From: an uncultured Planctomycetales bacterium
Lineage (GTDB): Bacteria; Omnitrophota; Gorgyraeia; Zapsychrales; Fredricksoniimonadaceae
DNA: 64,000 nt
Direction of reading: 5' to 3'
Assembly: GCA_964520655.1 (NCBI GenBank)
Contig: CAZFNI010000010.1
Span: 371 to 64,370, forward strand
The stretch's first letter is position 1; each line of letters opens with the position of its first letter. The notes below the pieces were generated by a model. It made no database searches. It had not been told where the DNA came from and saw nothing but the letters and a program-made list of their open reading frames with translations. Below, in pieces: positions 27,001-57,247 of this stretch. A program made the position numbers and the translations under genes.

Positions 27001-30000
27001 ACAGTATTGTGAATATTCCGGATGCTAAAAGCATTCCGGTCCAGATCTTCAGGGCGTATCACGAGGTCACCCAGCCGAATTCATTTGCTGTTCAACGTAT
27101 CGGCAGCACGCTGGTTGTGTTGATGCCTAAAGAAGCCGGCGCCAAACATTTTGACCGCTTCATCAGATTTGTCCGTGAGAACGAAAATGCTGCGTTTGCC
27201 GGCAATACACTGACGGTCCAGCAAGTGGTGAATTATCTAAATGACAGGAATGTTCAGAATTACAAACAGGCATTGACCAATGAAGAACAGGAGTTCTTGA
27301 AGATCCTGATGGTGCCGGGCCGGGAAATGATCCGGCAGGATGAAGGATTCAAATGGGATGTCATTGTGCCGGGTAACGTGGTCATGGTTGCGGTTGACAG
27401 GAATAGTCCGCAGATGGCTTCGAAACAGATCGTTCCGGCCGTCGCTCTTGTTTCAAAATTGTATCAGAACGAACAAAAAGGCGAAGCGGCCGACAGCGCC
27501 ATGTCTTCAACTGTTAGGGCTGTATTTGCGTCCTTGTTAGCTTCAGCTTCTTTGACCGCAAGTACGCCAAGTACGACAGCGGTGACAGATAAAAATGTCC
27601 CAGCGTCTGACGTTAAGGCTGATCAGGCCAATGAACAGGCCATGATCACGACGGGAACGCGCACGGTTGAACCTAAAAAGGTTGAACGCCGTGATGAAGG
27701 TGCCGGCGGCGGCGCGGGTGGTGGTACAGGCAGTGCCGCAAGAGTGGAATTGGTCAAAGCCTTAACGGCAGGATCACCGGCAGCAGCGGCAAGCATCATG
27801 ACCGCTAACAGCAGTCTCTCGGTTGAGGGCGTCAGGGCGGTTGAGAGCGTCGTTGCCCAAGTCATGAGGACGCCGGCATTCCAGACGGCATTAAACGATG
27901 TGCGCAAGGCTCAGGTGGAAAAAGGTGATGTTCCAGCGGCAGCGAATGTTCTTTTAAAGGTCTTTGCCCAGGAAAGCACCAGCGTCATCGACGCACGGAC
28001 AACGCGTACTGTCAGAACTGCGCAGGCTGCCCCAACACCAGTGACAGCCGCTGTACATCAAAAAGACGCGAATAATGTGGCGGCGATCCTCACGGGAACA
28101 ACACCCAACAGCATTGCTTCTCTGAAAGCCGAAGAAGATATCCCGGCGATCACTAAATATAGAGAAGGCGTCCAAGCACAGCAGGCGATCGACAACATGG
28201 TCTCTGAACCGAGCGTATTGTCTTCAGACGCTTTTGTCCGCGGCAATTTCGATCAGATCACGGATGTTGTGACCAAGGGTCTTAAAGGTACGACCAAAGA
28301 AAAGACAGCGAATATCATTAAAGCCCGTCTGCAAGATGTGTACAGCATGCCGGATGTTGTCCGTCAGTGGAATGTGATCAAGACTCAAACGCCTTCGGCT
28401 AAAGAAAGAGAAGTCTTCAATGCATTTGTCATGCAGAAGATGTCAGCCTTGCAGCCGAGTTTTGCTAAAGCGGTGATCTTGGCGTATGCGCAAAGCGTCG
28501 AGAATATGACACGAACAAGTGAGCATGTCGGTACGGATATCATGGGCGTTATCGACGCTGTTTTCACCCGTCCGGATCAGCTCATAGAAAAGCAAGCCGC
28601 TCAAGCTGCTGCCCAGACCTACTTTGATCGCAGGGAAAATATTGAAAAGAATCAATACTATAAGAACAAGGTCGCGGCTGATCCATCCTACGCGATTGGT
28701 GAATGGGCAGCCACATTAAGAGATATTGCCACGCGCATGCCGGATACGATCGTGGTGGAAGCGCCGAAGGCCGTCGCAGCGCCTGTTGTAGAGGCTGTTG
28801 CTCCTGTTGCGCAGCAAGTAACGGCTCTAGTAAAAACGGTTGTTCCTGTTCCAGTGGTTGTCCCGAATGCCTCAACGTTAGTTGATGGCAGACAACAAGC
28901 CGTGCCGGCAAAGATGGTCAAGCCCGCTGCCAACAATGATTCCTGGAAAAATAGAGTAGTCGACGCCTTAGAGAAAGTCTCACCGAGGGTTGCCGCGTTG
29001 GGCGCGGCCATTTTGCTTGGTTCCACACCAGTGGCCCAAAAGCAATTAAGTGGCACACAGGCTGTCGGTTCTGCTCCAGCGGTCGCGGTCATGCATCAAG
29101 GGCAAGAGGCACAGCTGCCAACCCTGACCGCAATGCCGATCCCTTCCACCAGCATGCCGGCAGCGTCAACAGTCAATAATGGTCCGGCGGCGGTTGTTAA
29201 TGCTTCAGGCAGCGTCGCGCCTCAAGCGAAATCCATTGCCGTGGTCCACAGCGTTGAATTGACCCGGGATGTTTCACAAGCTATTGCGAAATTACCGCAG
29301 GCGTTAAAAGAAGAAGTGTTCAGTAACCCCAGTGGCAGCGGTGCGATCGTCAGTGACCGTGTGTATCAAGTCATCAAGCCGGCCGTGGAGAAAAAAGATC
29401 TCAGTTCCCGTTTAAGCGCCTCTATAGCGGAAGCCAGCAATGCCGCAGCCGGGGCGCTGCTCATGGTCTTAGGCGGACTTGGGGTAGGCAAAAGACGCGA
29501 ACAGGCCCAAACAAAAGCACCGCAGCAAGCAGAGATCAAGACAAAGCCTGTGACCGCTTCCTTAAATGAACAGATCGCGGCCGTCAAGAATGCGGTCGCC
29601 CTGCACGCCAAGACATTACCGGATGCTGATCCAGCCAGGGTCAAGGCCGAACGTCTGGTGAAAGTATTAGACACCATGCGTTCTGTCGTGATCCCGGGCG
29701 CCGCCAATGAAGCTGTCATCAAACAGTTCGCCGCAACCGAGATCCCCGCGATCTCTGAAGATATTGTTGCCGCCTTGCCGGCCAAGGATCAAGAGACATT
29801 CAGATCCGTGGTGCAGTTCAGAGCTGCAGAGAAAGCCGAATATGAACGTCAGGAGCAGATGAAAGTTGAAACTGCCGCGAAGAAAGAACAGCAGGATATC
29901 CGCGATGGGCGTCTGCAAGCTCAGACGCAACGCGTGATGCAGGCGGGTGCTGATATAACATCGAAGGATCTGGTGGCGGCCGGGATCGCTGAAACAACAG

Positions 30001-33000
30001 TTGGCGCATCCGTCGTGAAGTGGCAGGATACACCGGATGTGAGAAATGCCCTTGAGGTCATCAAGGCAGCAGGGGAAGATATTTCGGATGTCACTTATGT
30101 CAAGGGTGAATACACGGCTCCGCTAAAACCATCAGCCCAGATCGCGATCGTGCAGTTGGCTACGGCGTTTGACCAGACAATTGAGCAGGCGGCGCAAGGG
30201 CGGCCTGTTTTGGCGGCAACAGCTCAGCAGATCAGGAACCTGGCGCGCGTGGCTATGGTGGCCGGCTATAAGGCAGAAGAACCTGATTATGTGGATCATG
30301 TGATCGCCCTCATGCCGCAAATTGAGCAGATCGAACGCGCGGTCTTTGCCTTACCGCAGGCACAGCTGGTTTTGAAGGTTGTGGAATATAATGGAAAGCC
30401 GGCGGATATTTCTTCCGCCCGCATCGTTGTTGACCGTTTAAAGCAATTTGAAACCACAGGCCAGATCGAGCCCGCCCAGGTCAAAGCGGTCTTAAATGTC
30501 GCGCCGAAATTAACGAAAGCCCAGCTGGATGACATGTTGAATTTACGCCAGGTCAGCCAGATCGCGTATCAGACGGTTCGCCAGGAAATGGCCATCTTAA
30601 AGGGCAGCCTCCCGGCAAAAGAGATCATTCAAAACAGAATTGCACAGTTGCTGCCGGCGTCGGTTAGAGGCGCGGCAGATATTAGCCGCAGCATTGCCGA
30701 TGCTGTTGTTGCCCCAGGTGCCGATCAGGTGGAATTGCCGGGCATCAGCGAAGCTGAACACAAGGTCATGACCGCGATCATTAATGATCCGCAGATCAGC
30801 GCGATCGGTTCTTTGGCAAGCGTGATGGATATGGGCGCAAAGAAAGCCGAAGGTTCCGTCGATCAGGCCCAGGTTTCTACAGCCATAAAAGTAATGGCCG
30901 CAGCCGCGGCTGCATCAACGGTGCTGTCGATCCCCAGCGCAACATCTCAACGGGAAATCAATCAGGTCTCACCGGCTGTTGTGGCGCCGGCACCCGTTAA
31001 GATCAGAGAGGTTGTGGCTCCGGTGATGGTGGACACAATGGTCCCGCAGGTGATCGCGCCGACCCAGACAAGATTTGACGTCAGCACGCCGGTCATTGAC
31101 AGGTTCAAGGGAGGGGTTGTCATCGTCGCTGTTGATGTGACAACAGGCAAACTAAGCGGCATTGCGCAAGTTGTCCCCGGCATTGACGGGCAAGTGGAAT
31201 CCTTCAAGAAAAGCCTTCCGAATGCCGAGAGCGTAAAATATGAAGTCTTCTATTCAGGTCCGCGTCCAAACTTTGTCAGCACGGTGATCAATAAGCTGGA
31301 TATCTTAAAGTCAGAAGCCAGACAAGTTGGCGGCGCATCTGCTCCGGCCCAGTTCATGGTGAAGGCCAATGAACAAGGGCTGTATGTTGTGAACTCTAGA
31401 AATGATAAGATCCATGAATACCGCTACAGCAGCAAAGGTCTGGAAAAAGCCGATCAAGCCATGGCTGCGGTCGCAGAAGTGGTTATAGAGAAAGGGATCG
31501 CGCCGGAAATATTGGCCAGGGGAGGCGCGGAATTAACCGCTGCATTAGGATCTATCGGGTTGACCGGGAATGAATTAGATGCCGTGAAGTTATCCGTTAA
31601 TCAAGTCAATCAGGACCGTCCGGCTGTTACGGCCGCGGTACAAAGAATTGAAACCGCCCGTGCTACCGGCGATACCCAAGCGGTCACGGCCGCTGTTGGG
31701 GCCTTAAATGAGATGTATCAAGGGAAGGTCCCAGAGGCTGTGTTAACAGCGCCGACGGTGCGCGGCATTCGTCTGGATGACGGTACCAGTGTCCCGGCGG
31801 TGTATAATGCCCAGCAAAAAGCCTATATCGCGGTTGCCCAAACACCTAAAGCACGCATCGCGTTGAATGCCGGCATCATCGAAACGACCTATCGCATTGT
31901 GCCGGCAGCTAAAGGCGACTCAAAACCGGAAGCTGTGATGTACACCTTGGAATCAACGCCAGCCGTCAACAAGGCCTATGCCCAGGTGATCGCGTCGTTA
32001 ACGGATCAAGAAAGAGTACAGTTGCCTCCAAGTACAGCCAAAACGATCAAGGCGACCCCACAATTGTTAGGTCGTATCTTCAATGTTCAGATCGCCAATG
32101 CTGTTAATGAACTGATCGCCGGAAAATCCTTCGAGAGCGTCAATGACGGCCGTATGGGGGCATTGCTCAATCAAGCGTTGGCCTTGGCTCAGGAAAACAA
32201 TGATACCGAAACTGTTGCCAAGATCAATGAACTTCAACCTCGCATTATTTTACTGCAAAAAGCGTACAGCGAATTAAATGCCCAAAGCGCGTTAGCCCTC
32301 AAAGTCGCATTATTGAGCAAAGATCCTCGAACGATCGCCCAGGCCCAGGCGGTTGTCGACCAATTGACCCAAATGAACGCCGACGGCCGCTACAGCAAAG
32401 ATGTGTTGACGCAATTGAAAGATGTTCAATTCCCGAAGATCAGTAAAGAAATGCTGGCTGTGTCGGTTAAGCTCAATGGGGCCAGCGCCTATACGGTTGT
32501 GATGTCCGCATTGCGCGGCCTGCTTGGGTTAAAGACTAAGGGCACGGATGCCCAGGATGAAGAAGCCGTCAGTCAGGCCATGAAAGATCCCGGCAAGAAT
32601 GACCAGATCACCGCGGCTATTGAAGAAGAATTAAGATCACTTGGCTTGACCGAGGGCATTAGCGATATTGCCATCGCCGTTGTCCAAAGCGGTAATCTGA
32701 AATTACTGCAAGGCATGACCAAAGAAGAAGCGCGTGCCTATGAAAAGATGATGCGCAGCCCGAATAATCAAGCGGTGGTCACTATTCTGGATTTCTTCGG
32801 ATTCAAGGGTGACGAGATCTTCGCCGGTGATAAAGCGATGGCAGTAAAGCCGCAGGAAAAAACGGCTGCCAGTATGCGCGAGATGTTCAATTTAGGCGCG
32901 GTAGGCAAATACATTGCCCAAGCCATAGGCCAGGGATACAAGACCAACAAGACCAGCGTGATCGCTTTTGATCCGGATGATCAAGCACAAATACGCGCCC

Positions 33001-36000
33001 TGAAAGACATGGTCATCACGATGGGCCGTAAACCGCTGGACATCACCTCGGCCAATATCACCAAGGCGGCAACCGATCCTAAGGCGTATGTGTTCTTAGT
33101 GCCCAATAACAAGGATATCCGGCGTGAACTGGCCAATGATCCAGAGGCCATGAAGGCGCTGGAATTGATCACCGATGTCCATGATAACAACGTCCGCACG
33201 GGAAGCGAGCTGTTCGCCGCGCAGGAAAAACTCATTAAAACGAATTATGTCGATCATTTGACCGGGATCGGCACGCAGGCGGAACTCAAACGCAGCGTCC
33301 AGGACATGATCAAGACGATGATGATGGGGACTTCATTAAGGTCCCGCGTCGCCCCGGCCAAAGAACCAACAGAGCGCAATGTTGCCTTCACTTATATCAT
33401 GTTCGACGGCAATAAATTCGGTTCGACCAATGTCCTCTTCGGGTTTGAGAATGGGGATGCGGTACTGGCCAAATTAGGCGAGATCGTTCGCGGCAATTCC
33501 CGTGAATCAGATATCTTGGTCCGCTGGGCGGGGGATGAATTCGTGATCGTTTTGCCGCAAGCCGGCAGAGAAGAAGCGGCCGCCTATTTGACCAAATTGA
33601 CTAAGGCCATTAACGAAGCCTCGTTCGTGCCGGAAGTCTTTGGCCGCAGCGCGGTATTAGAGAGATTACAGGCGAAACAGAATGATGACCTCTCCGAAGG
33701 CGACCAGGAAAAGATCCGTACCGGTTTGATCGCCCAGCTGAAGATGCAGAATCCCGGCAAGGAAGTCCCGGCGGATATGACCACTGAAATGGCTGTCAGG
33801 GCGATCAAGGCAGATCAATACGCCTTTGACCGCTGGATCGTTTCCATCACCGCCGGCGCAGCGGTGGTCAATAAATCTATTGAAGAGATGAAAGACAAAG
33901 ATCCAGAAAGCCTGCGACTGGAAGTGGAAAAAATGGCCGATACCGCTCTTGAAGGCGCTAAAGGCAACGGCAAAAGCTTTGATATCGTCAAAGACGGACA
34001 GCATTTTGTTTCCAATGAACCAACGGTGCTGGCGTTTGAGTCCAAAGAAGAACCTGTCGCGTATGCCGACCGCGTGGCTGGCCGCGGTGTGCTCGAAGGG
34101 TTAATGGATGAATCCATCCGCTGGGCGGAGAAGAATCATACCGTTCCTGTGCTGACCTATACTACAGGCGATCAGCTGGCAGGCATTAAAACATATTTGG
34201 CTAAGGAACATCCGGATAAAAAAGTTCGGAGCATCTATGATGCGAATTCGATCGGCGCGCTGGTCAATAATCCAGCGCTGTCACAGCAAGTGATCGTCAT
34301 CCCTGAGACGATGAAATTCAATTATCTAAAAGATTCTCCAGAGCTGCTGGCTGATTTTGAACGCATCACCGGTGTGCATGATGCCAAACTAACCGCTGAG
34401 GCCTGGTATGAATCTCAGCGCCGGGAGATCGATACTCCGGGGACAGACTTGTTGACAGGCTTGAAGAATAATGCCGGATTGAATCAAGCTGCCAGACAAT
34501 CCTTGAAGGAAATGGGCCGTATTATCGAGGCCGGGACCCCGGCCCGCATGGCCGCGGTTGTTGTCACCCTGCGTGATTTTAAGGCCGTCAATGACCTCTT
34601 CGGACATCATGCCGGCGATGCAATTTTAACGCTGGCCGGAAATTCTTTGAAAGCAGCGTCGCGCTTGACGGACAGCGAGGGACGTTTGGGCGGCGATAAA
34701 TTTGCCGCGATCCTGCCGAATACGGGAGAAGAAGGGATTGGCGCTTATGTCAGCCATGTGGTTGAACGTTTTAAGAAAGATCAGACACAGGATGCAGAAG
34801 TCGCCAGGATCTTAAGCAGAGACAATGTGGCTGACGTGTTGACACATATCTTGATGGATCCAACCACGACGGAGGAGAAAAAGATCAAGGTCTTGGGATG
34901 GGTGAAGACGCAGTTGAAGATCCAGAACCCCGGCAAAGAAGAGAAGATTGATGCGATTACAAAACTTTGGGATGCGATGAATGTGATCGACGAAAATAGC
35001 GACTTGACGTTCGACCGCTGGGTGATTGAATTAACGGCGGGCGCAAGCGGGATGACCCAGGTATTGCCGCAGAAGATCACCGATAAAGACGGCCGCCAGA
35101 TCTATGAGAAATTGATCACGGAAGCAAAGACCGCTGTTGCCCAGGCACAGAAAACAGGGGAGGTCGTAAAGCTTGGCCAATTTGATATCGCCTTAGAGAA
35201 AGCTCAGGCCGCCAAGCAGGAAAGCAGCGACAAGGCCCAGATCGCACGGGAAAAAGCACAGGCGGCCTCAGAAAAAGCTATCGAGAATGCCCGTGAGGCC
35301 CGCGATAGAGCGCAGATGGCTGCATATAATTTCAGTGCCCTGCGCAGCGCGGCAGTCCGTGAAGGCAAGTCCTACTTTAGTATATTGAAGGATGCTGTTT
35401 CAAACGGCCGTTTTGCCCAGAAGGCTAAGGATTACGGGGAAAATATCCGCGCCAAGATCTTGGATAATTCCTCCATCGCCAGGATCTTAGCGGCGATCGA
35501 GCAGCATAGGGCCTTTTTGAATGACCACCTGCAGGCCGTCAGAGGCCAGGTATTTAAGAAAGACGGCCAGGTCGGTTCTTCCGTCCAGACTAGCGCCGAT
35601 TCTTCGCAGGATCCCAATGACGCCACATGGTTTGAATATTTGATCAAGAAGATCAAGGATGCCGCCGATCAGGTGGTCTTTATCCTGGCGCGCCGCACCG
35701 CTTCATTCTTTAAGCCGGTATTCACCGCGGCCAATAGTTTCGCCGAGAACGTGGATTATGCGGCCTTAAAGGGCACCCGCGACATTGTCCGGGGCGTGCT
35801 GGCCTTCTTTGATCTGAATTCTGACGCCAAGATCGTTGACGTTTTTGCCGGCATCATTTCCCGTAATAAGGAAGCTTTGGCCAAGGCCAAGAACTTGCGC
35901 ACGATGCTCGTTGAGATCATTGAGATCGTCAAGATCGGGGACAATGACAACGAGGAGCTGCAGGAAGTTCCGGCCGATGCCGCGCAGATCGCCAACACTT

Positions 36001-39000
36001 TGGCCGATCAGATCATCGCTAAGTCCGGTATTAATTCATCCGCCTCCGCGGAAGATAATATGATCTTGGCCGTAGATCGTCAGACATTCAATGCCTACAA
36101 AGCGCTGCATTTGGAATTAATGGCCGCGGCAAGCAATCCGGCAGAGAAAGATGAAGCCATCCAAGCTTCCACGCAATGGTTCATGCGCTGGAAGATCAGC
36201 CCGCTCAATGCCCAGATGATCGTTGCCGGTTTAAATAACGGTAAAGGATTCACAGATCTTAAATCCTTATTGATGATCGATAAGAAGGATTCTTACTATA
36301 AGGCCAAGGATATCCAGCCGGGCCACAGCGTTGAAGGTGTGGAAGAAGTTGAAGAAGTTGAAGAAGTCCCGGCGGCAGTGCAGCCTGCGGATGTTCCTCA
36401 AGGCCCGTCTTACGCCGATCAATTCAATACGGAATACGGCGCGGAAGAGACCCAGACGATCGATGTCGAACCAATGGCGCCGCCAGCACCAGCCGACCGC
36501 AACAATATCAATGATTTCGATAATGAATTGCCGGTCATGCCGCAAGCGCCGCTGCCGCCAGCACCGAATAATATTCTGCCTAAAGTCGGTCCTTTATCCG
36601 ACGCCACAAATGATGTGCAATATGATAATGTCATTGAACTCTCGGCCGTGATGGCTGCGGGCAGGAGAAACACCGCGAAGTTAGAAGGCGAAGGCGGCAT
36701 TGCCACCGATGCCATGCCGGCGACCGGAACAGGCGACGAAGCGATGACATCTGTCGATCCCAACGATCCTTTGAAAGATAAGAAAGCTGTATTGCCCCAG
36801 ACCAATAAAAGCGGCAAAATGCCGCTGGATGAAGGCGGCACCACCGCTCCCATGAGGACCCCGACACTGCCAGGACCCATCGGCAACCCTGTGTCTGTGC
36901 CAGGCACAGCTGCGGCGCAGCCCACAGGTCCAGTGGCTGCCAATAATCCATTAGAACCAGCAGCACCTGAGGCGCCCGCGCCCAACACAACACCGATGGC
37001 TCAAAATAGTCCTTCGGCCCAAAATACTCAGGCACGGGTTGCGGCACCAACACCTTCTCCTGTACCAACTCCGTCCGCGGCAGGCGGAGCCCCGGCTGTA
37101 CCGCGCGCATTGACTGGCCCGCAAACGCCGCTGGGAATAACCTATAATCCGAGTGCTGTTGGATCCCAGGCTGAAGCGCCGCCTCCAGGGGCCTCACAGA
37201 CAACAAGAACAGCTCCTGCTGAACCGGTCAGTGAGCCAATACCATTACAATCACCTATTCCAGTGCCCGCGCAACCTTCTGGGGCTGGGTCAGGCTTAGT
37301 ACCGATCGTTTATGCGATCAGGCAATTGAGATATCAAGTCACAGAACCAGTTCCTACCGGTTCAAGATTAAGGGGGTATAATCCGTTTGCCAGAGTGCTT
37401 TTAAAAACGGCGCCGGATCACGCCCCGGGTCGTAACCCATCTGTCAGCGATTTCTCCGATCGCTCCGACAGAAGAAATGTAGGAAATGGAGAAAATGTAC
37501 AAACGTTTGCAGTACAAGCAGTTGCAGCAAAATCAGTAGTTTCTGTAAAATTAGCAGAAAATGACTTAGCGCAAGCTATGTCATCAAGCAAAAGCAGCAC
37601 AAAAGCAGTACAAGCAGCAAATCGTAGCGCCGAAGTAGCAGCAAGTGTCAACGCAGTACAGGTAGTACGTAGTGTTGCACAAAGCAGTAGTAGTAACAAT
37701 GTCCAAACTGGTAATAAGTCCTCCCTTAGGGGTAGGATGGCAGCGCAAGTAGCAGAAGCAAGAGCTGTAGTGTCAATGGACATTATGGCGGAAACACCTA
37801 GATCTGACAGGACTGTTTATAATAACAGTGCCGCTGGTAATAGTAATAGCAGCAGAGTACATATAGGAAATACTGCATCAAGCCTACGTGCAAGAAGTGT
37901 GCGCATAGACTCTGGGCACGGTATAGATAGTGTAGGTAGACTGTCTAGTGCTAGGGCTATATACACAGATACTGCCATAGGTGTGAGTGCTCGAGATTTG
38001 CCAACCGGGCTTGCCGGGGATGGTCTGCGTATGGGGACTGTTTCTGGAGGTTCAAGAAGTGTTGGCTTCTATTCGTTATTGTCAAAACGAGCACTGACAT
38101 TCAGCCAAACTAATCTCACACAAGCACAATTAAGTATCATCCGTTTCATCCATCAAAAGGGGAGGTACGTATGGTTACCGAACTTAAAATTAACCACATT
38201 ATCCGCGTCCGCGACGACGACTCCAGGATCGCAACCGCACGCGACGCAAACAACAAGATCCACATTTACCGCATCAGCAAACTGGGCATCATCACCAAAC
38301 ATAACGGGCTTAAATCCACATGGGATCCTGTTGAGGCCAGGATCAAGGAAAGTCTCCGCATTCTTATTGACGCCGCAAGCAAATTCGGCCGCAGTTACAA
38401 GATCGACCACGTCTGATCCATCACTCAATTCTAATAATGTTTTTGATCATGCGCGTATTTGGCTAGCCAAACAAAGCCAGGGCCGCTTTGTGTTTGACAG
38501 GGCACAGCGCGCATCCTGGAAAGACGCGCTCCAATCTATCCGCAGAGATCTATGGCAATACATCGCTGTTGCGGTGGGGGGCGTGATCGGTTCTGCGGTG
38601 ACGGTTGTCGCCATAGAAAAGGGATGGATCTCGCCGCGGGCCATCGAGATCATCCGCGTCAATACCTGGATTGTTTTAGGCGTATATGCATTTAAGGTAT
38701 TGATCGACCGCGTTTTTGGTAAGAACGATCGATCAGCTTCTTCCAAAGAAGAAGGCACAAAGAACGACGAAGACAAGAAGATATTGTCCGTCGCCTTGGT
38801 TTTAGGCACCGGGGCGGCCTTGATGTCTGTTTTAGGATTTACACCTGACGCCGAGGCGGCGCAGGCGCATTTAACACAACACAACGGAGGTGCACTATGG
38901 TTAAGATCACCAACATCATCGACATTCCCAGCACTAACAGCCACATTGCCACGGCCAGGGATGAACGCAACAAGGAGCACATCTTCTGCATTACCGATGA

Positions 39001-42000
39001 CGGTCAGGTCTTTAAACGCAAAGGCCGCAGTAAATGGGAAGAACTTACGGGTGAGCGCGCCAAACGCGTTATCTATACCACCTACGAAGAGTTCTGCTCC
39101 AGCGGCGAGAAAAGACACAGCGTCGAGGGCTATGTCGGCGTTCCGCTCTTTATGGCTGCAAAATAATCTGCGTGATGTGGGTGGCATGACCTCGCCCCTG
39201 TTAGGAACAGGGGCCGGCCTGGGAATTGTTCTGTTGGGGCTTGGTTTAAGAGCGCGCCGTCTCAGTGGCGCGCTTGGGGCAGGCGGATATTGGGGCAATG
39301 TCAGTGACGACCTGGAGAAACAGATCAGGTCCGTTCTACCCCGGGCCAGGGACATTAAAGGCCGTCGCCTGCCGGTGGAATTCAACGGCGTGCCTGTTCA
39401 GCACAAGTATTTCGAAAAAGAGTTTTTTGAGAAAAAAGATGTTTCATTTATCTGGGCAGCTAAGAGCCGAGGGAAACTGGTCATTTATTTTTCTTCATAT
39501 GGGCTCTTTACGCAATTGACCCGAGAGTTCCCCCATGAAAAGGAGTTAGAGAAAGCGCTCGAGATGGTTTATTACCACGAGATCAGGGAACAATATTATT
39601 TATCACGCGGGTGGGGGCGCGGCGACAGCCACCGGTTTGCCGTGACTGGCACCCGTATCCAGTATCTGCGTGAGAAGGACATTCTCTCTAGAATAGAATC
39701 CCTGATCGATCCTCTGCCAGCAGCAGCTAAGGACCATGTGCGCGTCCACATTGGCAAGAATGACGCCGAGGAGCTGGATCTAGGCGCTGCGCGTGCCGAT
39801 GCGATCGTACGGCAGCAAAAGGGACGAATCAATATAGCTGTCGGCGGCGGGGAAACAGTCCCGGCACTCCTGGATGCCTGGGTGAGGTTGATCGCAGAGA
39901 ATCTGCCGCTCTACAAAAGCATCATCTCCAGGATGCATGTGTTCATGGTGTATGAATCCAGGAACAGCAACACGCATCAGGTGGTGATTGATAGATTCAT
40001 CACCCCGCTTAAGGCCATGGGCATCAGCGTTGACAGCAAACAGATCCATGCCGTAAATTTACAAAACGCGCATACGCTTGAGGAATACAAAAAGATCGCG
40101 AAGGATTACACCATCGCCATGAGGAATTCGTTAGGTCCCAAGGACCAGTTCGATCTGATCTTAAGCGGGGTTGGCCAGCACGGTGAATTCGCCGGTTTTG
40201 AATCCAATTCACCGGTCATTTATGCCGCCAAGCCGGTGATGATCGCCTTTGAGCGGCGTGACGGTGTTTTGATGACCTCACTGACACCGGATGTGTTCCG
40301 TAAGGCCAGGAACATTATCCTGGTATTGATCGGGCCCCATAAGCGCGGAGCGCTGCTGGATATGATCGCCCCCGAAGGGTCCATCGGTCAGTCCCCGGCC
40401 AGGGTGATCCATGAACAGTACTGGGGCCAGACGGACATTTACACCGATCGTTCTTCCAAGCGCTGGCCGCAAAAAGAATTTTTATTGGATGATGGGACTG
40501 TATTTTTCGCGGATGTGCATGAGGGGCTTAAAGGATCGGATGTGGTCATTTTTATTCCTGGCTTTCATGACCATAATTATGACCAGCAGTTCCGCGGCCT
40601 GCCATATGCCGAGACCATCGTTGTGCGCCGCGACGATCTGCCGGTGAGATTAGGCAAAGATGAGGTGATGGCGTATTACGCACAAAAGATCAAGGCGGTC
40701 ATCAAATATTATCAGGACCAAGGCCGCCGGATCAAAGTGGTGACGCATTCTGACGGGAATGAATTCTTTGGATATTTCCTGGCGCATGCCGCCATGGATA
40801 TTCAGCCGATCGCCGCGCTTGACCGCATCAGCCCATGGAATGCGGCGGATATCGCTTTTGTTATTGAGCGGTTTGCTCAACATAAGCTGGGCCCCGCGGC
40901 TTTTGGGATCGGTTATGTCTCCCCATTGCTGGCATCGATCATGAGCTCGTCCTGGGGATGGTTGCCGATGCTTGGGCCCGCGGCCAATGAAATGCTGCGC
41001 TCATTCATCGCTTCGAACATGGATGCCTTCAGCAGCCTGTTTGACCAGGAGGATGCCACGTTAAGCGGTCAGCTGCGCCGTGATGACCTGGAGTCATCCA
41101 TGGAGATCCCGCTGGAATTGCTGTTCGCGGAATTGTATGCCGTGTCTCATCAAGACAAGGAAGTCACGACCAAGGCACAGGAACGTCTGATCGCCTGGGG
41201 AACGTTCGTGACCACGATCGCGCCTAAAGAGGACAATATTAGCAATGTCAAACGCATCGCGGAGGAACATCAACGATTTATCAGCATGAAAGGGAAAGGG
41301 GAACTTGTTGAATTATCAATCGATCCTAAAGGCGGCAGTTCATTTACGCAGGCCCATTTTATTCACCGTTTTGCGGCGCGGGTGAATGCCTTGATCGCCA
41401 GATTCCCCGGCGATGAAACGATCGTGCCTTCTGCGGAGACAGCGTTTGAAGGGATACAGGCAGCCTTAAGCATATCAAGAGAGAAGGGCCATACATTACT
41501 GCGTATTCATTTTGGTCAGGATGAGATCGACGTGCGGGCGCTTGCGGCTAATGTGGAAGATGCACAGATATATATTGATGATCTCACGACCCACCAAAGG
41601 GTTGTCAATTACACCATTGACCAAACCCGCCGGTATTCAAGCTCGGTGACGCTGCGTTTTAAGGACGGTGAATTACCCGCGGCGTTCTGGATCAAGATCG
41701 GGCAGGGGATCGAGAACACCATCGTGACAAGAGGGGCGGTCGATAAGAAGCTTCGTCCGTATTCATTCTTTGTGACTAAGGATGCCCATGGTCAGCCGTT
41801 CCCGCAAAGTCCAAGAACCGCGGAAGAAGCGTATGGGCTGATGCAGTCATATCGGATATCTGACGATGAAACCCAGGACCATGCCATCAGCGCGTCAGGA
41901 CAGATACTGGCAAGCACGGTCAATAATCATTTTGCTGCCAGGTTTATCCGGCATGCCGATCTGATCCAAAAGATCAACCGCTATTTAGGCCGCGGCGACC

Positions 42001-45000
42001 CGTTGGGAGCGCCGCTGGCGGTGCGCGAAAAAGGTCGGGTAAAATGGTTTGTGGAACCGGACCGTCTGGTGACCATATTATCGCAAGAACTTTCCGAATC
42101 AGAGAGAATAAGCGTTGTTGAAGCGCTTTCCGTTGTCCGCAGCTTTCTCCTTCATGAGTCACGACCGACGGAGAAAGAGGGTATTGCTGCCCAGATCACT
42201 GGGTTTATCCAGGAAGAAGAGATATCCAGAACACGTGACGCTTATGCGACGATCCAGGCGGCCGCGCGTCAGGGCGGTATCAAGACCCTGCAGCAGCTGG
42301 AGAAAAAATATCGCAAAGACCAAACCCTGATGTTCAGATTTGAACACCGTACCGCAGAAAATGTCATTATTTTGTACCGCTGGCCAACGCTCTTTGACGT
42401 ACCGGAAGTCCATAAGGTTCACAATGATATTTGGTTCAAATTCCCCAAAGAGCAGATGTCGCTTTTGCAGGTATACGCTCAGATCCAGAATTATCAGCGC
42501 GGGCATGTTGTGGCGGAAGTTTTTGATTTAAATGTCCCTGGCCGGCAGTACATTTACGCGCCGATCTGGAGCGTGCGGGTCAATGTGTCTCGTGATCTGG
42601 CCCGTCGACTGATGTTTTCTGATGTGGCAGGAACGATGTTTCAAACAGTAGATGCCTTGACCAATGACAAGACGCTTGACGGCGTCGTATCCGTTGACGG
42701 CCAATGGACGTTTAATTATGCCACGGGTCTACCGACAACCAAAGTCGCCAATCAGGACGCGGTTGCCGGGTATCTTGTCAAGGGCAAGCCGCTCAAAGGT
42801 ATTGATGATGGGTTGGTCATGACCCAGGCGTACCAGCAGCACCGCGACAGGATACGGTTCTTAAGAACATACAGCCCGATCACCGCGCTTGGCCTGCATT
42901 GGAAAAAAGGCGCGTTCAAATTTAATTTTGGTGAGATTCCCGATGGAAGATACCCTGGGGCGCATGCGATCATCATGGCCTACCCCTGGCATGATTTTAT
43001 GACCATTGGCAAAGGGCGCTTCTCTGAGAAGCTTTCCAGGGTAGTGATCGTGCCTTCGTATCGTTTTGGCATTGACCGCATCGCTTCACCGGTCGATCCG
43101 GATAAGGAAGAATTGGTCATTCGTGTCGCGGTTCCCGGGTTCAAGCAGGCCTTGCCGCGCAATAACCCGCTGCGCCGTCCTTTTGTGAAGGTTAACAAGG
43201 ATCTGATCCTCAGGAATGGGAATAATCATTACCGTGTTCCTGAGATCTTTAACATGACCGCGGTCGGACATGCCAAAGCATTGCTTAAACGGTATTTAGG
43301 GTTGGATACCATCACCTTGGCATCACTGCCTGAGCACAACGGCATGAAGCTCACCGTCGCTGTATTAGGTGACCATGAGACCCGCTCATTTAAACCGTGG
43401 ATCAATTTTGGGGTGATCAAAGCTCTGCTTAAGAACCGTCAGATCAATACGGTGGTCACCGCAACGACAGGAAATCAGGGTATCGCGCTGGCCTGGGCCG
43501 TGCGCATGCTGGCTAAGACCATGAAGAGGGAAGATCTGAAAGTGATCGTCTATGTCGGTGTTAATACGTCAGAAGCGAAGATCGCGCGCATGCGGGAGTT
43601 CGGCGCCATCGTCATTGGGGATCCTTCCCGCAACCCGGATGTTGTTTTCGAGAATTATGAAGCAGCTTATCAGGCGGCGCTTAAATTCTCCCAGATCCCC
43701 GAGATCAAGGAAAAGACATATTTTGTGGAACATGCCAACCGTGCGGCGATCTTGGGGTATGCCGCATTAGGATCAAGGGTTTTGGAGATCTTGCGTTCAC
43801 AGGATAACGCAGATCATTTGGCTATTATTGTACCCGTCGGGGCCGGAGGTCTGGCCAGCGGCTTTGCAGTTGCGTCACGATTGGAGAAAGATCCGACCAA
43901 GGTGTATATAGTCCAGACAACACGGACAAAGCATGCGTACATCTCGTTGTTGACCGGTAAGAGGGTCGTATTTGCCATGCCTCAAAGTCAAGAGTACGAC
44001 GAGAACGGCATCGACACTAAGAGTCTTGAGCCAATGGCATTAAAGACACTGCGCACTACCGCTGATGGTTTGGCGTTAGTTGACCCGACGCTGATACCTC
44101 AGACGATCGCATATTATCGCGCCCAGGGGATCATTGCTGAGGGGGCCGCGGTATTGCCATATTTGGCGCTGGAGGCCTTGAAGGAAGAATTGGCAACCAA
44201 AGGCATCACCCATGTTCTTTTGGTCGCAACCGGCAGCAATGTCAGCGATGCTGCGCAGAGTTCTCGGGACATCATGAGGCATGAAAGGGCGGCGGCACAT
44301 CGTTTGTACCAGGCCACAAGGAATTTGGAAAAGAAGCGCGCCAAGAACGGGCTGATGCCGATCGTCTCTGTTGGGGCGGCCACGTTTGAGCAGGGCAGGA
44401 GCGTGCATACGGCTTTCAATGATTTTAGCGTGCACGCTGAGGGGAATCTTGTTTTTGATGTGTTGGCCAGTCAGGTTAAGAAGGCACATCCAGCACTTCA
44501 AGAGCCATTAGACCGTCTCTATGCGCTAGTTTCAATGAGGAAGCTGTCCCGTGATCAGACGTCATTCAAACGCCTGGTCAAAATATCCGCGCAATTGGGC
44601 CATCCCATGAAGGGGCTGGATGTGATCGTGACATATGAACCTTGCCCGAGCTGCTTTAATCTCCTTTTCTCCGTCGGTGTTCGCAAGGTATTTTATATCG
44701 ACGCGCATCCTAATGATGAGTTCGCGCAAAAGCGCGGGCATGCCGGCCTTATGAAGGTACAGTTGGAAAGCTTGGCCAGGAAAAGCTTGATGAACCAAAG
44801 GTATAAGCACTTAGTGGCGCAGGACCAGATGGCATTTAGCGATGATCAGCGGGCAGCGCAGGATGTCTTTGCCAATTCATTCAGGCAATGGTTCAAAGAT
44901 CATTTGAATGCCAGCATTGCCGATGTCAGGGGGATGAAAGAACAAATCGGGAATGTTAGCGGCGCAATGTTTTGGAAGATGCCGCGCGGTGACAAGGGGA

Positions 45001-48000
45001 TGGCCTCTCTGAAGCCTGGAGTGCATTCTGGGTCATTGTCCTGGATCGATGGCTTACGATCGAATATCCGCATTCTCCACAATTGGTCCGCCGAGGAACA
45101 GATATTTGCGGCTGATCTATACCGCAGTCAGCCGGAAGTAAAGAAAGCATTTTTGAAAAATGCGCGCATCACCATGGATCTGGAAGCGTATTTAAATTCG
45201 AAAGGAATGCTCCCATTGGGGGTCATTGCCCGCCGTGAGAGCATTAGAACCAAAGTCAAGGATCTGGACCTGGGGTGGCGATGGCTTATCCGAACCGACA
45301 GTCATGAGAATGCAGAAGATGTTATTTTTAGAGTATTGACCCAGGAGCTTCCGGAGGATCAGCAGTTGACGCCGCGTGAAGCGTTGATGTTCATCGCCCA
45401 GGTCAAAGCACATGAAGAAGGAAAAAGCGAAGCGAAAGGCATTGTCCGTCAATACAGAGACATTAAGGCCCGCAATGCTGTTGAACCGAAATTGCGCATT
45501 GATCCGGTGTGGGCCAAGTCGGAGCAGATTAAGGATAGGATCAGGAAGCTTATGAATGTTCTGTGGCATGTGATCATAGGGATGGCATTTATTGCGCCGG
45601 TGATTAATTCAGAACTTTGGATCGTGGCTGCAGTGTATACGGCAGGCATGTGGCTTGCGGCTGCTTTTTGGATATTGATGTTATATTTCTCTGAGGTCCT
45701 GATGGTTATTGGCTGGGGGATCCTGGGGCTGTTTGTCTCTCCGGTGCAAGCCAAGATGGAGTTTGTTAACAGGATATTGACCGCGGCTTTTGCGGCAGCG
45801 ACCGGGATCGCGGGCTATCAGGTGTGGAATATGCCCAACGACGCCAGATCATGGCTTGTTTTGATATTTTTGGGGATCTTTACACATCGGAATCTTTCGG
45901 TGGATATCACCATCAAGCAGGATAATGATGCGCTGGACCTCACCCCCGTCTATGACTTAAGGTCAGGCAAAGAACGCAGCAACATCACCACCGCCTTTGA
46001 TAAGACCGAGGGGATCACGCTCCCCTGGATATACGGATTTAGTCCACAAGGCGGTCATACCGACGAGGACATCAACACGGCCTTACAGTATCTTAAGCGT
46101 ACAGCGCCCCGGAAAGCCTTGTTGCTTAAAACGCTGGTGGACGAAAATCGTTTGACTTTTGGGGCTGACGAAGCGTTCCACTCGGCCTGGGTGACTAAGA
46201 ATGGCCAGCAATACTTGTTGATAAGCGTGATGGAGTCCGAGGACAAGGCCAGGGCTCTGGTGCGTGCGATCGCCGGAAAAGAAGCGGTTTCAGGCTTTGA
46301 CCAGCTTAAGCGTGTAAAACAGACGATCTCCTCATCGGGAGGCGCCTTGGTCAATATCAGCAGCGGCGGGGCCATTTTAGATGTTGTCGCGGCCTATTAT
46401 GAGAACACAGATGCCGGGAAATTCAGCCGTTTCTGGTCGCTGGTTGACCAGAAGCAGATCTATATAAGCCGGCAGGTAGAGCAAACCCGATGGGAGGGCG
46501 ATGAGCTGCTGGTATCATTGTCCAATGATAAAGAACTGTCGCATGAGATCGTGGGGGCCATGGCTGTCCAAGGCGAAACAGCGCAGGGAGAGATCGATCG
46601 ATTGAGGCGGTGGCTTGAGGATCACACATCTGGCAAGGGACTAATGGCAAGTTGGGGCATGTCGGATCAGCAGATCGCTCAATTATCTTCCTGGGGCAAA
46701 GAGCAGCTGTTGAAGATATTCAAGATCGCCTGGCCGGAAGACATGGTGTTAAGTCTGCCAGCTGGGACTACGGGGAATTTGATCTGCTTTGAGCCAGTAC
46801 TCTATAAGATCAACCGTCCAGTGTTTAGCGGTGACCTGCTCTTGGTCCAAATGGCGGTCCTGGCTCAACGCAGGCGGCTGACAGGTATTATTGACGAGAA
46901 GGCGCGTTATGCCGCGGCGCTGTTGACTACGGCAGTTCCTTATTTATTAGACCTGCGTCGCGATGAGGATAGAAAGCAGGCGCTGATCACAGCCCTGGGG
47001 CCTGGGAATATGGGAGAGCAGGATACTCTGGCGACTTTTTACCGTCGGGTGTTGAACGATACGGCTTTGCAGAGGCCGGAAGATCTTCTTGTGCATCTTG
47101 CCGGAATTTTTGACTTGGATGAGGATTCCGTTGGAATGATCGGGACTGTTGACCATGCCCAGGCATCTGTAGTGCCGGGGGATAGTTTTATTGATCCCGC
47201 GCGCAGTGAGCCGCCGCTGGCCGTCTCGCATCAACCTTTGGTCATGAAGATCGCGCAGGAGCATATCCATACACATATGACCCCGTCACATTTGGATATG
47301 ATACGCGACGAGGATGGGCACGTTCAAGAGGATGCCTATACGGGAATGCGCAGGGATATTGAGAGATTCTTAAGGCAGATCGGGGATCTGCGGGCCCTGC
47401 GCATTTTTCAGGGAACGGTCATCCTCCCGTTTACGCCGGGTCTTCAGGACAGCTTGCAGGAAACGTTTTGGGGTGCATACACATTCCAGGGGTTAAACGG
47501 GACCTGGCAGAGAAACGCGGAAACATATCCAGTCATCATTGCCAATGATGCCGAATCGATCGTCCATGAGCTGTATGCTTTAAGCGGCAGGGAACATCAT
47601 CTGGCGCATGCCCATGAACAGGCGGAATATAAGGCTAAAATATTCACACAATGGCTGGAGTCACATAATGATTTTAATATTTTTTATTCCGGGCCCAAGC
47701 CGCATCGCATGGGCGCTTTAGGGTTGCTGAAAAAGATCATCCCGAGAATGGCGTCCGCATTTGCCGCCCAAGGTCAAGAGGCAAGGATTAATGTACTTTC
47801 CTGGGGAGGGGTGAGGCACCTGGAGCTTCCGGTGAGCACTGAGGGGCTGAGGGTCCTGATGTATGTGCTTGAACACAACCGCATGAATCTTAGTCAGTGG
47901 AACAATGTCCGTCTAACCCCGGATAATTTTAAGATCACTGTTGTTGCCGACCGCTTGGACACGCTCGATGCCAAAGCGTTTAAGATACACCTGAACCATT

Positions 48001-49246: not shown

Positions 49247-49984
49247 TTGGGCCGTGGCATAATCCCTCCCATGGAATTATCATTAAAAGAACTGCGTCAG
49301 AAATTACGTTCACATGCCAACCCGGCTAAAGCAGAGGTCTATAAACGTTTCTTTAAGACAGGCAAAGGCCAATACGGCCACGGGGACCGGTTTATCGGAC
49401 TGACCGTTCCTCTTCAGCGTTCGCTTGCCAAACAGTTCGTGCATTTAGGTCTAACGGATATTGACGCGCTGCTGCAAAGCCCTATCCACGAGGAGCGGTT
49501 GACGGCGCTGCTGATCTTGGTGGCGCAGTATAAGAAAGCCCCCCAGCGCCAGCGGAAGGTTATCTTTGAATTCTATTTGAAGAGATCCGCCCGGGTCAAT
49601 AATTGGGACCTGGTGGACCTAAGCGCGTATCATATCGTCGGGGCGCATTTGGAAGGCCAGCCGCATGATATTCTTTTCAAGCTGGCCAGGTCGAAGAATT
49701 TATGGAAGCGGCGCATCGCGATCGTGGCGAGTTTTCATAATATCACCCGCGGTAAAAGCGAGCCGACGCTTATTTTGGCCGCGATGCTGCTCAAAGACAA
49801 AGAAGAGTTGATCCATAAGGCTGTTGGCTGGATGTTGCGCGAGGTGGGCAAACGGGTGGGGCGGGATGTTCTGGAAGATTTCCTGTGCCGCAATTATAAG
49901 CGCATGCCCCGGGTGATGCTGCGTTACGCCATCGAACGCCTGCCGCTGGAAAGACGCATAGCCTACCTGAAAGCGGAGTTGTAA
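49247..49984 (+). CDS. DNA alkylation repair enzyme (AlkD/AlkC-like HEAT-repeat DNA glycosylase); probable true start ATG 49271
   Basis: PAKAEVYKRFFKTGKGQYGHGDRFIGLTVPLQRSLAKQF and HEERLTALLILVAQY match the DNA_alkylation family signature (..YFKTG.GQYG.GD.F.G...P..R.LA). Confidence 0.7.
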   Translation: MGRGIIPPMELSLKELRQKLRSHANPAKAEVYKRFFKTGKGQYGHGDRFIGLTVPLQRSLAKQFVHLGLTDIDALLQSPIHEERLTALLILVAQYKKAPQRQRKVIFEFYLKRSARVNNWDLVDLSAYHIVGAHLEGQPHDILFKLARSKNLWKRRIAIVASFHNITRGKSEPTLILAAMLLKDKEELIHKAVGWMLREVGKRVGRDVLEDFLCRNYKRMPRVMLRYAIERLPLERRIAYLKAEL

Positions 49985-55867: not shown

Positions 55868-57247
55868 TCAGTGACGATCATTCATTTTTTTTCGCAATTC
55901 GGCGAGGTCTTTCTTTAGCGCGTCGATCTGATTCTGCTGTTGTTTGATGGCTTCGATCAAGGCTCCGACAAGGTTCTCCATAAAAACGTGTTTAATGCCT
56001 TTTTTATCCGTAAAGACAAGTTCCGGGAACACTTTTTCCACGTCCTGGGCGATCACGCCCAAAGATCTTTTTTTGTCTTTCTTCCAGGTAAAGGTAACGC
56101 CTCGCAGCGCTCTTACCTTATTTAAGGCATCGGTGATAGGCGTGATGTTCTCTTTCAAACGTTCATCGGAGGGGGCGCCGTAATAATACCCGCCGCTTAA
56201 GTTGTAAATATCTCCGTCAACGCCCATGTCGCCTAAGACATACAAGCGATAAGAAGCGTTCGGTGCCGCGCCGACCCCGACGCTGCCGCTTAAGGTGGTT
56301 GTGCCGACAGCAACATTTAAGGCTCCGCCCGCAATGGTGACCCCGGCATTGAAAGTGGCCAGGCCGGTGGTGGATAATGTTCCCCCGACGGTGGTATTGT
56401 TGGATAGGGTGGTAACGCCCGTGACACCAAGTGTGCTATTGACCTGCGTGGCCCCGCCCAGGGTTGTTGCTCCGGTGACATTTAACGTGCTGTTGACCGC
56501 GGTAGCGCCATTTAAAGTGCTTGTGCTTCCGGCGGTGAATGTGCCGGGACTGGTGACAGAAAGGGCGGTGGAAACATTGGCTGTGGCAAGGGTTGTTGTC
56601 CCGCTGACACGGGCATTGCCGGTGACATCCAGTTTCTGGGTTGGAACCATGCCGATCCCAAGTCCCGTTGAGGTTAGCCGCATTTGCTCCGCGCTATTAG
56701 TGTAAAAGGTAAGTGTATCAGCCGCGGGGTAGCTTAAATAAGTCGTTGTTCCGCCAAGATACAGGTTTGGGTTTGCGGCACTTAAGATCATATTGCCGTT
56801 GACGTCGAGTTTCTGAGCAGTAGCACCGGCGGGATTGATGCCCAGATTGCCGTTTGCCTCAAGGGTCATCTGGTCAGCGCCGTTGTTGATCCGAAAGTGT
56901 ATGGCCTGCCCAGCAGGGCGGTTAAAGTACAAGGCTTGGTCAGCCGTGCTGCTGCGGATATGCGCATTGGCGCAAGTCCGGTCGCCGGCCAGTCCTATTC
57001 CCACAAAACCCGCGCAGCCGGTTGCTTCTCCGATAGCAACATTGGTCGCTACCGTCACGTTTGAGCCGGCGTTGACGGTGCCGACACCAATATTATTAGC
57101 CGTTAAGATGTCATAATTGCCTGTTGGTGCCGGATAATAGGTGTTGATCGTATTGGATCCGGCAGCTGATGCCGTTAAGGGGGCCGCGAATACCGCCGTT
57201 AACAGGAACATCAGTAGTCGTTGTTTGGTCATCCAGGAATATGCCAT
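55868..57247 (-). CDS. secreted tail-fibre-like repeat protein with C-terminal Peptidase_S74 intramolecular chaperone domain (paralog 1)
   Basis: Signal peptide, then Thr/Gly/Asn/Ala-rich beta-repeats (TGATTLGGATQVNSTLGVTGVTTLS...). The last 100 aa, SDERLKENITPITDALNKVRALRGVTFTWKKD..., match the SDxRLKxNI auto-cleaving chaperone signature (nt 55871-56170). Confidence 0.7.
   Translation of the reverse strand: MAYSWMTKQRLLMFLLTAVFAAPLTASAAGSNTINTYYPAPTGNYDILTANNIGVGTVNAGSNVTVATNVAIGEATGCAGFVGIGLAGDRTCANAHIRSSTADQALYFNRPAGQAIHFRINNGADQMTLEANGNLGINPAGATAQKLDVNGNMILSAANPNLYLGGTTTYLSYPAADTLTFYTNSAEQMRLTSTGLGIGMVPTQKLDVTGNARVSGTTTLATANVSTALSVTSPGTFTAGSTSTLNGATAVNSTLNVTGATTLGGATQVNSTLGVTGVTTLSNNTTVGGTLSTTGLATFNAGVTIAGGALNVAVGTTTLSGSVGVGAAPNASYRLYVLGDMGVDGDIYNLSGGYYYGAPSDERLKENITPITDALNKVRALRGVTFTWKKDKKRSLGVIAQDVEKVFPELVFTDKKGIKHVFMENLVGALIEAIKQQQNQIDALKKDLAELRKKMNDRH

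Follow-up and report, generated by a model that had tools for sequence, protein, structure and literature searches.

A predicted zinc deaminase domain of a rare, insert-bearing CDA family within a 16,333-residue Omnitrophota protein

Introduction

Among the giant proteins described for Omnitrophota are an 'Archaeovorin' form with an N-terminal C39 domain and GGDEF, a 'multi-enzyme metabolic cluster' and a C39 architecture group (bioRxiv 10.1101/2023.11.21.568195; bioRxiv 10.64898/2026.06.07.730766). These giants have been proposed to act as predation or surface effectors (bioRxiv 10.1101/2023.11.21.568195; bioRxiv 10.64898/2026.06.07.730766), and the puzzle posed by an extracytoplasmic location of multi-enzyme giants has been discussed (bioRxiv 10.64898/2026.06.07.730766). 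Here, we analyze a stretch of 64,000 nucleotides (positions 371 to 64,370, forward strand, of contig CAZFNI010000010.1, assembly GCA_964520655.1; hereafter the window) from an uncultured bacterium that is labelled Planctomycetales and placed by GTDB in the Omnitrophota. One of its open reading frames (186..49187, + strand) encodes a giant protein of 16,333 residues, which is membrane-associated, combines many enzymes and is of the Omnitrophota type. Our subject is a domain toward the C-terminal end of this protein (44277..44759, + strand; aa 14698-14858), in which an earlier note, made from the letters of the sequence, had recognized a deaminase of the CDA fold. We favor, with moderate confidence, the view that it is a genuine and most likely catalytically competent CDA-fold zinc deaminase, belonging to a rare insert-bearing clade and with a free nucleotide, nucleoside or base as its probable substrate.

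New deaminase clades are sought for what they reveal about nucleotide metabolism and conflict systems, and as scaffolds for base editing. Our literature searches found no description of an insert-bearing clade of this kind, which is apparently undescribed as far as we have found, and the main text of neither giant-gene paper (bioRxiv 10.1101/2023.11.21.568195; bioRxiv 10.64898/2026.06.07.730766) mentions a deaminase domain.

Results

The two motifs expected of a CDA-fold deaminase lie where the earlier note had placed them and in a single open reading frame: HAE at aa 14750-14752 (44433..44441, + strand) and PCPSC at aa 14819-14823 (44640..44654, + strand). The giant protein contains PCxxC once and HAE three times, and the combined pattern, [HC]AE-x(20-90)-PCxxC, arose in 0 of 5000 shuffles of its sequence. 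The isolated domain is recognized by the Pfam model PF00383 at 26.5-27.2 bits (cut-off 25). We also built a hidden Markov model (HMM) of the family described below, leaving out the window sequence. It detects a single domain in the giant, at aa 14724-14853, with a score of 72.8 bits, as compared to at most 7.7 bits in 1000 shuffles. Together with the fold predicted for the domain, these matches bear out the deaminase assignment.

Searches of solved structures by sequence pointed the same way. Using the single sequence, phmmer aligned the PCxxC half of the domain to dCMP deaminases (4p9c, 1vq2) and to CDADC1. The top match in this search, 7uek ('OT3'), aligned only to the insert, in repeated stretches, and was treated as spurious. 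The family profile found CDA enzymes only; the best of these, 6l2m (7.8e-7), was aligned over both the HAE and the PCxxC halves, and was followed by CDADC1 and the human and T4 dCMP deaminases. The family profile matches and the best fold matches all belong to the CDA superfamily, and the outcome that the earlier note had named as a refutation, best profile hits outside it, did not appear. Assignment to a known subfamily is a different matter. The NCBIfam equivalog models scored far below their cut-offs on the window domain (TIGR02571 ComEB, 20.5 bits vs 219; RibD, 12.6 bits vs 156), as did the anti-phage dCTP deaminase model, and the same scan gave no TadA model at E ≤ 1. The flank that the earlier note had called TadA-type, VTYEPCPSCFNLLFSVGVRKVFY, is indeed present; its supposed specificity for TadA did not hold up, as this is a generic superfamily motif that, by sequence, fits dCMP deaminases at least as well.

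To find relatives of the domain, we ran an exhaustive phmmer search over 1.84 billion cluster representatives (E < 1e-3), which returned 10 matches. Eight of these (P0001-P0008) share a long spacing of 66-75 residues between HAE and PCxxC. Locus scans, which used a four-sequence alignment (A3) because a second alignment (A2) was too divergent, added three further full-length members (L004-L006) from the GTDB species representatives and no new distinct sequence from metagenomes, where L008 proved identical to L006. Word-index homology searches with the domain or the family profile gave no match even though the exhaustive search had found relatives, likely reflecting a limit of the index; the same kind of search with P0004 gave only two close relatives. 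The segment spanning the deaminase and the PALP domain that precedes it had no match in the genome or metagenome contig collections, and therefore this part of the giant has no close orthologue in those collections.

The named sources of the family are all Candidatus Omnitrophota metagenome-assembled genomes, and one further locus (L006, CAYTGV010000001.1) is labelled 'uncultured Planctomycetia'. These sources, like the architecture of the giant, would fit an Omnitrophota origin of the window. The L006 protein is identical to that encoded on metagenome contig Ga0307992_1000004 (L008), and the locus is syntenic with that of the Omnitrophota member L004, with PilT-like and PFOR-like genes and a small HD paralogue upstream; the Planctomycetia label is possibly wrong. 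PF00383 is the best Pfam match for all nine aligned family members (best E 3.1e-9), and the PADLOC model for anti-phage dCTP deaminase matches five of the nine.

The earlier note had remarked on an extended spacing of about 64 residues between the two motifs and had suggested an insert, and this idea proved sound. In the window domain, 66 residues separate the E of HAE from the P of PCPSC; counting from the H instead, as for the family, gives 69 residues, and the spacing is 66-75 residues in every family member. When 6l2m is compared with the family profile, profile positions 17-72 and 121-194 align to chain residues 9-66 and 71-140, so that about 45 profile positions are without a counterpart in the canonical enzyme. 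These positions correspond to a helical insertion, seen in both the alignment and the predicted fold, that runs from the HAE helix to strand β3 (aa 14768-14808; 44487..44609, + strand). The family HMM aligns to the window domain without a break through this region. In a 12-sequence alignment, column identity averages 0.35 over the insert, as compared to 0.31-0.46 in the core segments. Judged from the alignment, then, the insert is a conserved hallmark of the family, as conserved as the core and not private to the giant. H14750, A14751, E14752, C14820 and C14823 are invariant in all 12 sequences, as are P14725, V14729, L14778 and P14807. The window domain is the most divergent member of the family (20-25% identity).

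The commonest architecture (P0001-P0003 and L003-L006) is a protein of about 600 residues with a signal-peptide-like N-terminus, an HD_5/HD domain, the deaminase and a helical C-terminal region ending ...QAI. The HD domain of these proteins bears HD-GYP motifs (HDIGK...HHxxxDG(S/T)GYP). In L001 and L007, a single in-frame TGA (L001 6470-6472) splits a fusion of the same two parts between HD-GYP and deaminase, and in L002 the fusion is broken by a frameshift (~1540-1565). The seemingly 'stand-alone' deaminase genes of L001, L007 and L002 are thus artefacts of interrupted fusions. The L001 and L007 contigs, which differ very little in length, possibly derive from one population, and for their TGA an error, a pseudogene or read-through are all possible. 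P0006 has two LOG-family domains upstream of its deaminase, and two members are long proteins: P0007 (4,637 aa), with NUDIX, radical SAM, PPDK, GT4 and DUF218 domains ahead of the deaminase, and P0008 (3,390 aa), a multi-domain protein with weak CofD, DUF1152 and HAD matches. At the C-terminus of P0005 a Pol-beta nucleotidyltransferase motif was picked out by eye, and it gained no support from Pfam.

No convincing transmembrane (TM) helix follows the N-terminal segment of the small and long relatives, and so their domains are predicted to be extracytoplasmic. Otherwise different members have a short C-terminal tail in common, which reads ...QAI, ...MAI or ...TAI in P0001-P0005 and L004-L006 and ...EAA or ...QAA in P0007 and P0008, and which may serve as a signal for sorting or recognition. 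The window domain departs from the common plan. An HD-GYP profile matches nothing in the giant, leaving the domain without this partner; the C-terminal EPNxLFF region and the ...QAI tail are missing, with the HMM match stopping at aa 14853; and the giant itself ends ...NLPIEP. From its sequence, we regard the window domain as an outlying family member, like P0007 and P0008.

We then modeled the fold of the domain. From a nine-sequence family alignment, AlphaFold gave a model with a pLDDT of 72 and a pTM of 0.69, with core blocks at 75-92; from the single sequence, pLDDT was 41. The model is a three-layer α/β/α CDA fold with a five-stranded sheet, in the order α1, β1, β2, α2, the two-helix insert, β3, α3, β4, α4, β5. 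HAE lies at the N-terminus of α2, which starts at model residue 61 (aa 14751), and PCxxC at the N-terminus of α3 (model residues 131-139); α4, between β4 and β5, is a short helix. Beyond model residue 170, pLDDT falls below 50. Foldseek returned 63 matches in the PDB at E < 1e-3, with a probability of 1.00 to more than 50 CDA structures. The best 50 of the 63 are all from the CDA superfamily (TadA, RibD/RibG, dCMP deaminases, ADAT2/3 and guanine deaminase), with 10-21% identity to any solved enzyme, and in BFVD phage dCMP deaminases came out on top. The earlier note had proposed a comparison with toxin deaminase clades; the structural neighbors proved instead to be housekeeping-type enzymes, namely TadA, RibD, dCMP deaminase and guanine deaminase.

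The giant has 10 cysteines in 16,333 residues (0.061%), as compared to 1.32% in 14 neighboring open reading frames. They fall at aa 80, 292, 298, 455, 460, 1073, 1078, 14820, 14823 and 15534, such that only 3 lie in the 15,255 residues past residue 1078, against an expectation of about 201 (Poisson P ~5e-82). Two of these three, C14820 and C14823, are predicted zinc ligands. Cysteine has otherwise been all but purged from the protein, and the persistence of exactly these two putative ligands is a strong argument for selection on the metal site. Cysteine depletion is milder in P0007 (0.8%) and P0008 (0.5%). The two giant-gene papers do not mention cysteine (bioRxiv 10.1101/2023.11.21.568195; bioRxiv 10.64898/2026.06.07.730766).

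Followed back from 186, the frame of the giant stays open as far as window base 3 and contains no ATG, GTG or TTG, and therefore the gene is probably truncated at its 5' end by the window, with its true start upstream. Residues encoded in this frame ahead of 186 (window 1-185) include a hydrophobic stretch, RSVALFVLTVFIPDQVSWA, that resembles a signal peptide or an anchor. A Peptidase_C39-like domain follows at aa 120-184 (543..737, + strand; Pfam 31.5 bits, cut-off 22), with C80 just upstream of the match. Within the gene, GC content shifts from ~43-49% to ~50-54% after the first ~20 kb, a stretch in which GC skew is strongly positive. This shift (window 1-20000 vs 20001-64000) parallels the composition of the protein, which is rich in Gly, Asn, Thr and Lys in its N-terminal part and in Ala, Val and Pro in the middle. 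Two diguanylate cyclase-like GGDEF domains lie at 33276..34778 (+ strand; Pfam 116.5 bits in two stretches, the best at aa 11420-11531), with the motif reading AGDEF at aa 11116 and GGDKF at aa 11503.

The deaminase itself is embedded among other enzymes. Four hydrophobic, TM-like segments (aa 12792-13021; 38559..39248, + strand), the last followed by RARRLS, are succeeded by a Glucosamine_iso family domain (aa 13209-13410; 39810..40415, + strand; Pfam 52.7 bits, cut-off 27) that is like NagB and 6-phosphogluconolactonase, the two being inseparable here. A succession of three ammonia-releasing enzymes (NagB-like, dehydratase-like and deaminase) was considered and set aside, as the first of them may instead be a lactonase. 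Directly N-terminal to the deaminase is a domain of the fold-type II enzymes dependent on pyridoxal phosphate (PLP), similar to Ser/Thr dehydratase or serine racemase (aa 14381-14683; 43326..44234, + strand; PALP 99.3 bits). It retains the Lys of the SFK motif (window 43380-43400, aa ~14400-14406) and a glycine-rich loop, PVGAGGLASG. Dehydratases carry SFKxRGA at the SFK site; this domain reads SFKPWINFG, and its activity is uncertain. After the deaminase comes a cluster of four to five hydrophobic, TM-like segments (aa 15122-15234; 45549..45887, + strand), preceded by KDRIRK. The order between the clusters is thus Glucosamine_iso-like domain, unassigned regions, PLP-dependent dehydratase-like domain and deaminase, and from the domain matches we conclude that the deaminase belongs, as a single module, to a block of domains from metabolic enzymes bounded by TM clusters. 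Under the positive-inside rule, RARRLS after one cluster and KDRIRK before the next suggest that this block is on the cytoplasmic side.

Around the enzyme domains, some 2,100 residues (40443-43325, 44763-45560 and 45963-48605) have no convincing Pfam match at E ≤ 1, the sole match at that level being a weak LCAT-like one of 14.5 bits. In the segment 40443-41465, an alpha/beta-hydrolase-like THSDG motif was seen by eye only. The earlier note had counted more than 1,400 residues after the deaminase, including TM helices and an HD domain. We find ~1,475 residues and the TM-like segments just described; the HD domain fared less well, as the region in question (aa 16140-16275; 48603..49010, + strand) scores 15.3-18.1 bits against a Pfam cut-off of 22 and is without a sequence match in the PDB. 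We also considered this region as an HD-GYP partner for the deaminase and rejected it on the missing PDB match, the sub-threshold Pfam HD score and the HD-GYP scan described above; it is unrelated to the HD-GYP domain of the small fusions.

The earlier note had likened the domain to deaminases of polymorphic toxins (DddA-like, DYW-like) and had proposed a search for an immunity gene. Neither the genes downstream of the giant nor the neighborhoods of the small fusions contain an immunity-like gene. A DNA_alkylation (AlkD-type) repair gene begins 60 nt after the giant gene (49247..49984, + strand; E 4.8e-59), and past it lie housekeeping genes. Their products are a small protein with a weak likeness to DUF3192, then a TrmB-like methyltransferase and a D-Ala-D-Ala carboxypeptidase. 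Scanned with Pfam over its whole length, the giant shows no RHS, LXG, filamentous haemagglutinin, PT or other trafficking or pre-toxin domains. On the window domain, the MafB19-deam model reaches 12.7-14 bits (cut-off 27) and Bd3614-deam has no match at E ≤ 1; on P0001 and P0002, Bd3614-deam reaches 19-21 bits (cut-off 38.5). With the domain internal and a repair gene downstream, the analogy to polymorphic toxins finds no support at this locus.

Further along the window, two tandem paralogous genes of ~460 aa (55868-57247 and 57266-58648, - strand) encode proteins with signal-like N-termini and repeats rich in Thr, Gly, Ala and Asn. Both carry a C-terminal Peptidase_S74 intramolecular-chaperone domain and resemble tail-fibre or surface-fibre proteins. 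At 61826-62299 is a gene for a small SLOG cluster4 / LOG-like protein (PF18306, E 9e-41); LOG is also the domain fused to the deaminase in P0006.

Discussion

Our preferred model is that of an active deaminase of small molecules. His14750, Cys14820 and Cys14823 are the predicted ligands of a zinc ion that would activate a water molecule, with Glu14752 as the predicted proton shuttle, such that oxygen would take the place of the exocyclic amino group of a pyrimidine or purine. We envisage as substrate a free nucleotide, nucleoside or base and not the DNA or RNA of a competitor, because family members are fused to HD-GYP or LOG domains or sit in giants with NUDIX, and because of the nearest neighbors in sequence and fold. 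The chemistry is probably conventional. The clade appears to be confined almost entirely to Omnitrophota and would be defined by its conserved insertion, two helices of ~40 residues in all that separate the HAE helix from strand β3; the helix between β4 and β5 in the model would place it on the TadA / dCMP-deaminase / RibD side of the CDA superfamily.

Several observations weigh against this model. PF00383 was passed marginally and only by the isolated domain, the score falling to 20.9 bits in a 2,333-aa context, and no subfamily is singled out, the scores of TadA, RibD and dCMP deaminase being much the same. The structural model was built from nine sequences only, and Foldseek TM-scores were modest (0.3-0.55, with an rmsd of ~5 Å), as would be expected from the ~45-residue insert and the low-confidence tail. 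The giant lacks an HD-GYP partner and its own HD region is sub-threshold, so that the case for a nucleotide substrate leans on relatives that are 20-25% identical. Wherever the N-terminus of a member is complete, it bears a signal-peptide-like segment, with no TM helix after it; this speaks for a role outside the cytoplasm or directed at prey and is awkward for a housekeeping metabolic one. Finally, extreme cysteine depletion is more usual in exported proteins, and that of the giant may be a sign of export or of extracellular life.

These last points also speak for the rival view that the domain is instead a prey- or competitor-directed effector, the founder of a new toxin clade, which would be exported with the giant or a cleaved fragment of it and would deaminate the nucleic acids or nucleotide pools of prey. 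Such a role would suit the predation or surface functions proposed for Omnitrophota giants (bioRxiv 10.1101/2023.11.21.568195; bioRxiv 10.64898/2026.06.07.730766); the C39 peptidase domain could cut the giant into pieces, and weak matches to deaminases of the MafB19, Bd3614 and XOO_2897 types occur in 4-7 of nine members. All of these toxin-model matches are sub-threshold, however, and the domain, far from forming a C-terminal warhead, is followed by ~1,475 residues that include TM-like segments. Pre-toxin domains are missing from the Pfam scans, as are immunity-like genes from the surroundings of the giant and the small fusions; the closest structures are housekeeping enzymes; and the positive-inside flanks suggest a cytoplasmic block. 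We therefore think an effector unlikely, if worth keeping in view. A broader proposal, that the whole clade is a new class of exported, prey-directed enzymes that modify nucleotides or nucleic acids in predatory or episymbiotic Omnitrophota, strikes us as improbable as well. Were it true, the small fusions would couple a secreted HD-GYP phosphodiesterase to a deaminase, for example to destroy the cyclic-dinucleotide or nucleotide signals or pools of a host, the two-helix insert would be a novel element of substrate recognition, and the copy in the giant would serve as one of the warheads in a multi-enzyme effector that can be cleaved.

The domain could also have fallen silent, as a relic or as a module that binds a ligand or serves as a scaffold, retaining the fold without deamination. 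The window sequence is the most divergent of its family, it lacks the two residues before HAE (HRHAE becoming HAE) along with the EPNxLFF region, and inactive CDA-fold subunits such as ADAT3 are among its structural matches. Yet the catalytic and zinc-ligand residues are all intact and invariant, and the ligand cysteines persist in a cysteine-purged protein, although a purely structural zinc would account for their retention too; we consider inactivity quite unlikely. We give still less credence to a captured housekeeping enzyme, be it TadA, dCMP deaminase/ComEB or the deaminase domain of RibD, in its usual job. The best profile and fold matches in the PDB are indeed of this kind (the TadA-like 6l2m and 2a8n, RibG and dCMP deaminases), the single-sequence matches are dCMP deaminases, and one source labels P0002 'TadA'. 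Against this, the ComEB and RibD equivalogs are missed widely and TadA altogether at E ≤ 1, identity to any solved enzyme is 10-21%, and neither the conserved 40-residue insert nor the fusion partners are found in the TadA, ComEB or RibD families. Lastly, a protein of 16,333 residues offers many chances for short motifs, HAE alone occurring three times, and one might ask if any deaminase domain is there at all. Chance co-occurrence of the motifs is refuted by the shuffle test and the independent family HMM, with which the fold prediction and fold searches concur, and we attach next to no weight to it.

The domain is one of few enzyme modules of the Omnitrophota giants that are arguably under selection and functional, because both zinc-ligand cysteines survive in a nearly cysteine-free protein. 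The ~170-residue domain, or a natural fusion of ~600 residues, also offers a practical way into the biochemistry of oversized proteins. Should any member act on polynucleotides, it would provide a new scaffold for base editing.

How does the domain compare with systems already described? One likeness is to the PF00383 group of dCMP deaminase, ComEB, CDADC1 and anti-phage dCTP deaminase, with which it shares the HAE-x-N and PCxxC...G(V/I)(K/R)x(V/I)xY motifs and a likely free-nucleotide substrate. This group supplied the best single-sequence matches in the PDB (4p9c, 1vq2, 9hfq), the top matches in BFVD and the PADLOC dCTP deaminase model that fits five of nine members. It differs in having no ~40-residue, two-helix insert between HAE and PCxxC and in its fusion partners, which here are HD-GYP, LOG and giant proteins, and we found no evidence in the window domain of its allosteric or second-zinc features. 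TadA and ADAT2, which include the top profile and Foldseek matches (6l2m at 7.8e-7, 2a8n and 7nz7), lie on the same side of the CDA superfamily and share with the model the helix between β4 and β5; set against this are the 10-21% identity, the lack of an NCBIfam TadA match and the absence of the insert from TadA. The region corresponding to the C-terminal tRNA-binding helix of TadA is of low confidence in the model (pLDDT below 50 beyond model residue 170).

The deaminases of polymorphic toxins (DddA/SCP1.201, MafB19, Bd3614, XOO_2897 and DYW-like) are likewise domains of very large, probably surface-associated proteins, and further points of likeness are a carrier from a predatory or episymbiotic lineage and the weak, sub-threshold similarity to MafB19, Bd3614 and XOO_2897. 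Unlike them, the domain is internal, has no immunity gene, trafficking or pre-toxin domains beside it, and matches the toxin models only below threshold. The DddA-like and DYW-like clades reportedly have, in the account of Iyer et al. from 2011, a β4-β5 hairpin instead of a helix. As for the carrier, it lacks the downstream PilZ gene that accompanies most giant genes in an earlier survey (bioRxiv 10.1101/2023.11.21.568195), and our Pfam scans found in it no glycosyltransferase, NUDIX or dockerin domain, a further difference from the Omnitrophota giants described. In its broader plan, it resembles those giants, the 'Archaeovorins', the 'multi-enzyme metabolic cluster' and the C39 group, with more than 16,000 residues, an N-terminal C39 domain near a signal-like segment, TM clusters, GGDEF domains and a tiling of unrelated enzymes, of which the predicted deaminase is one.

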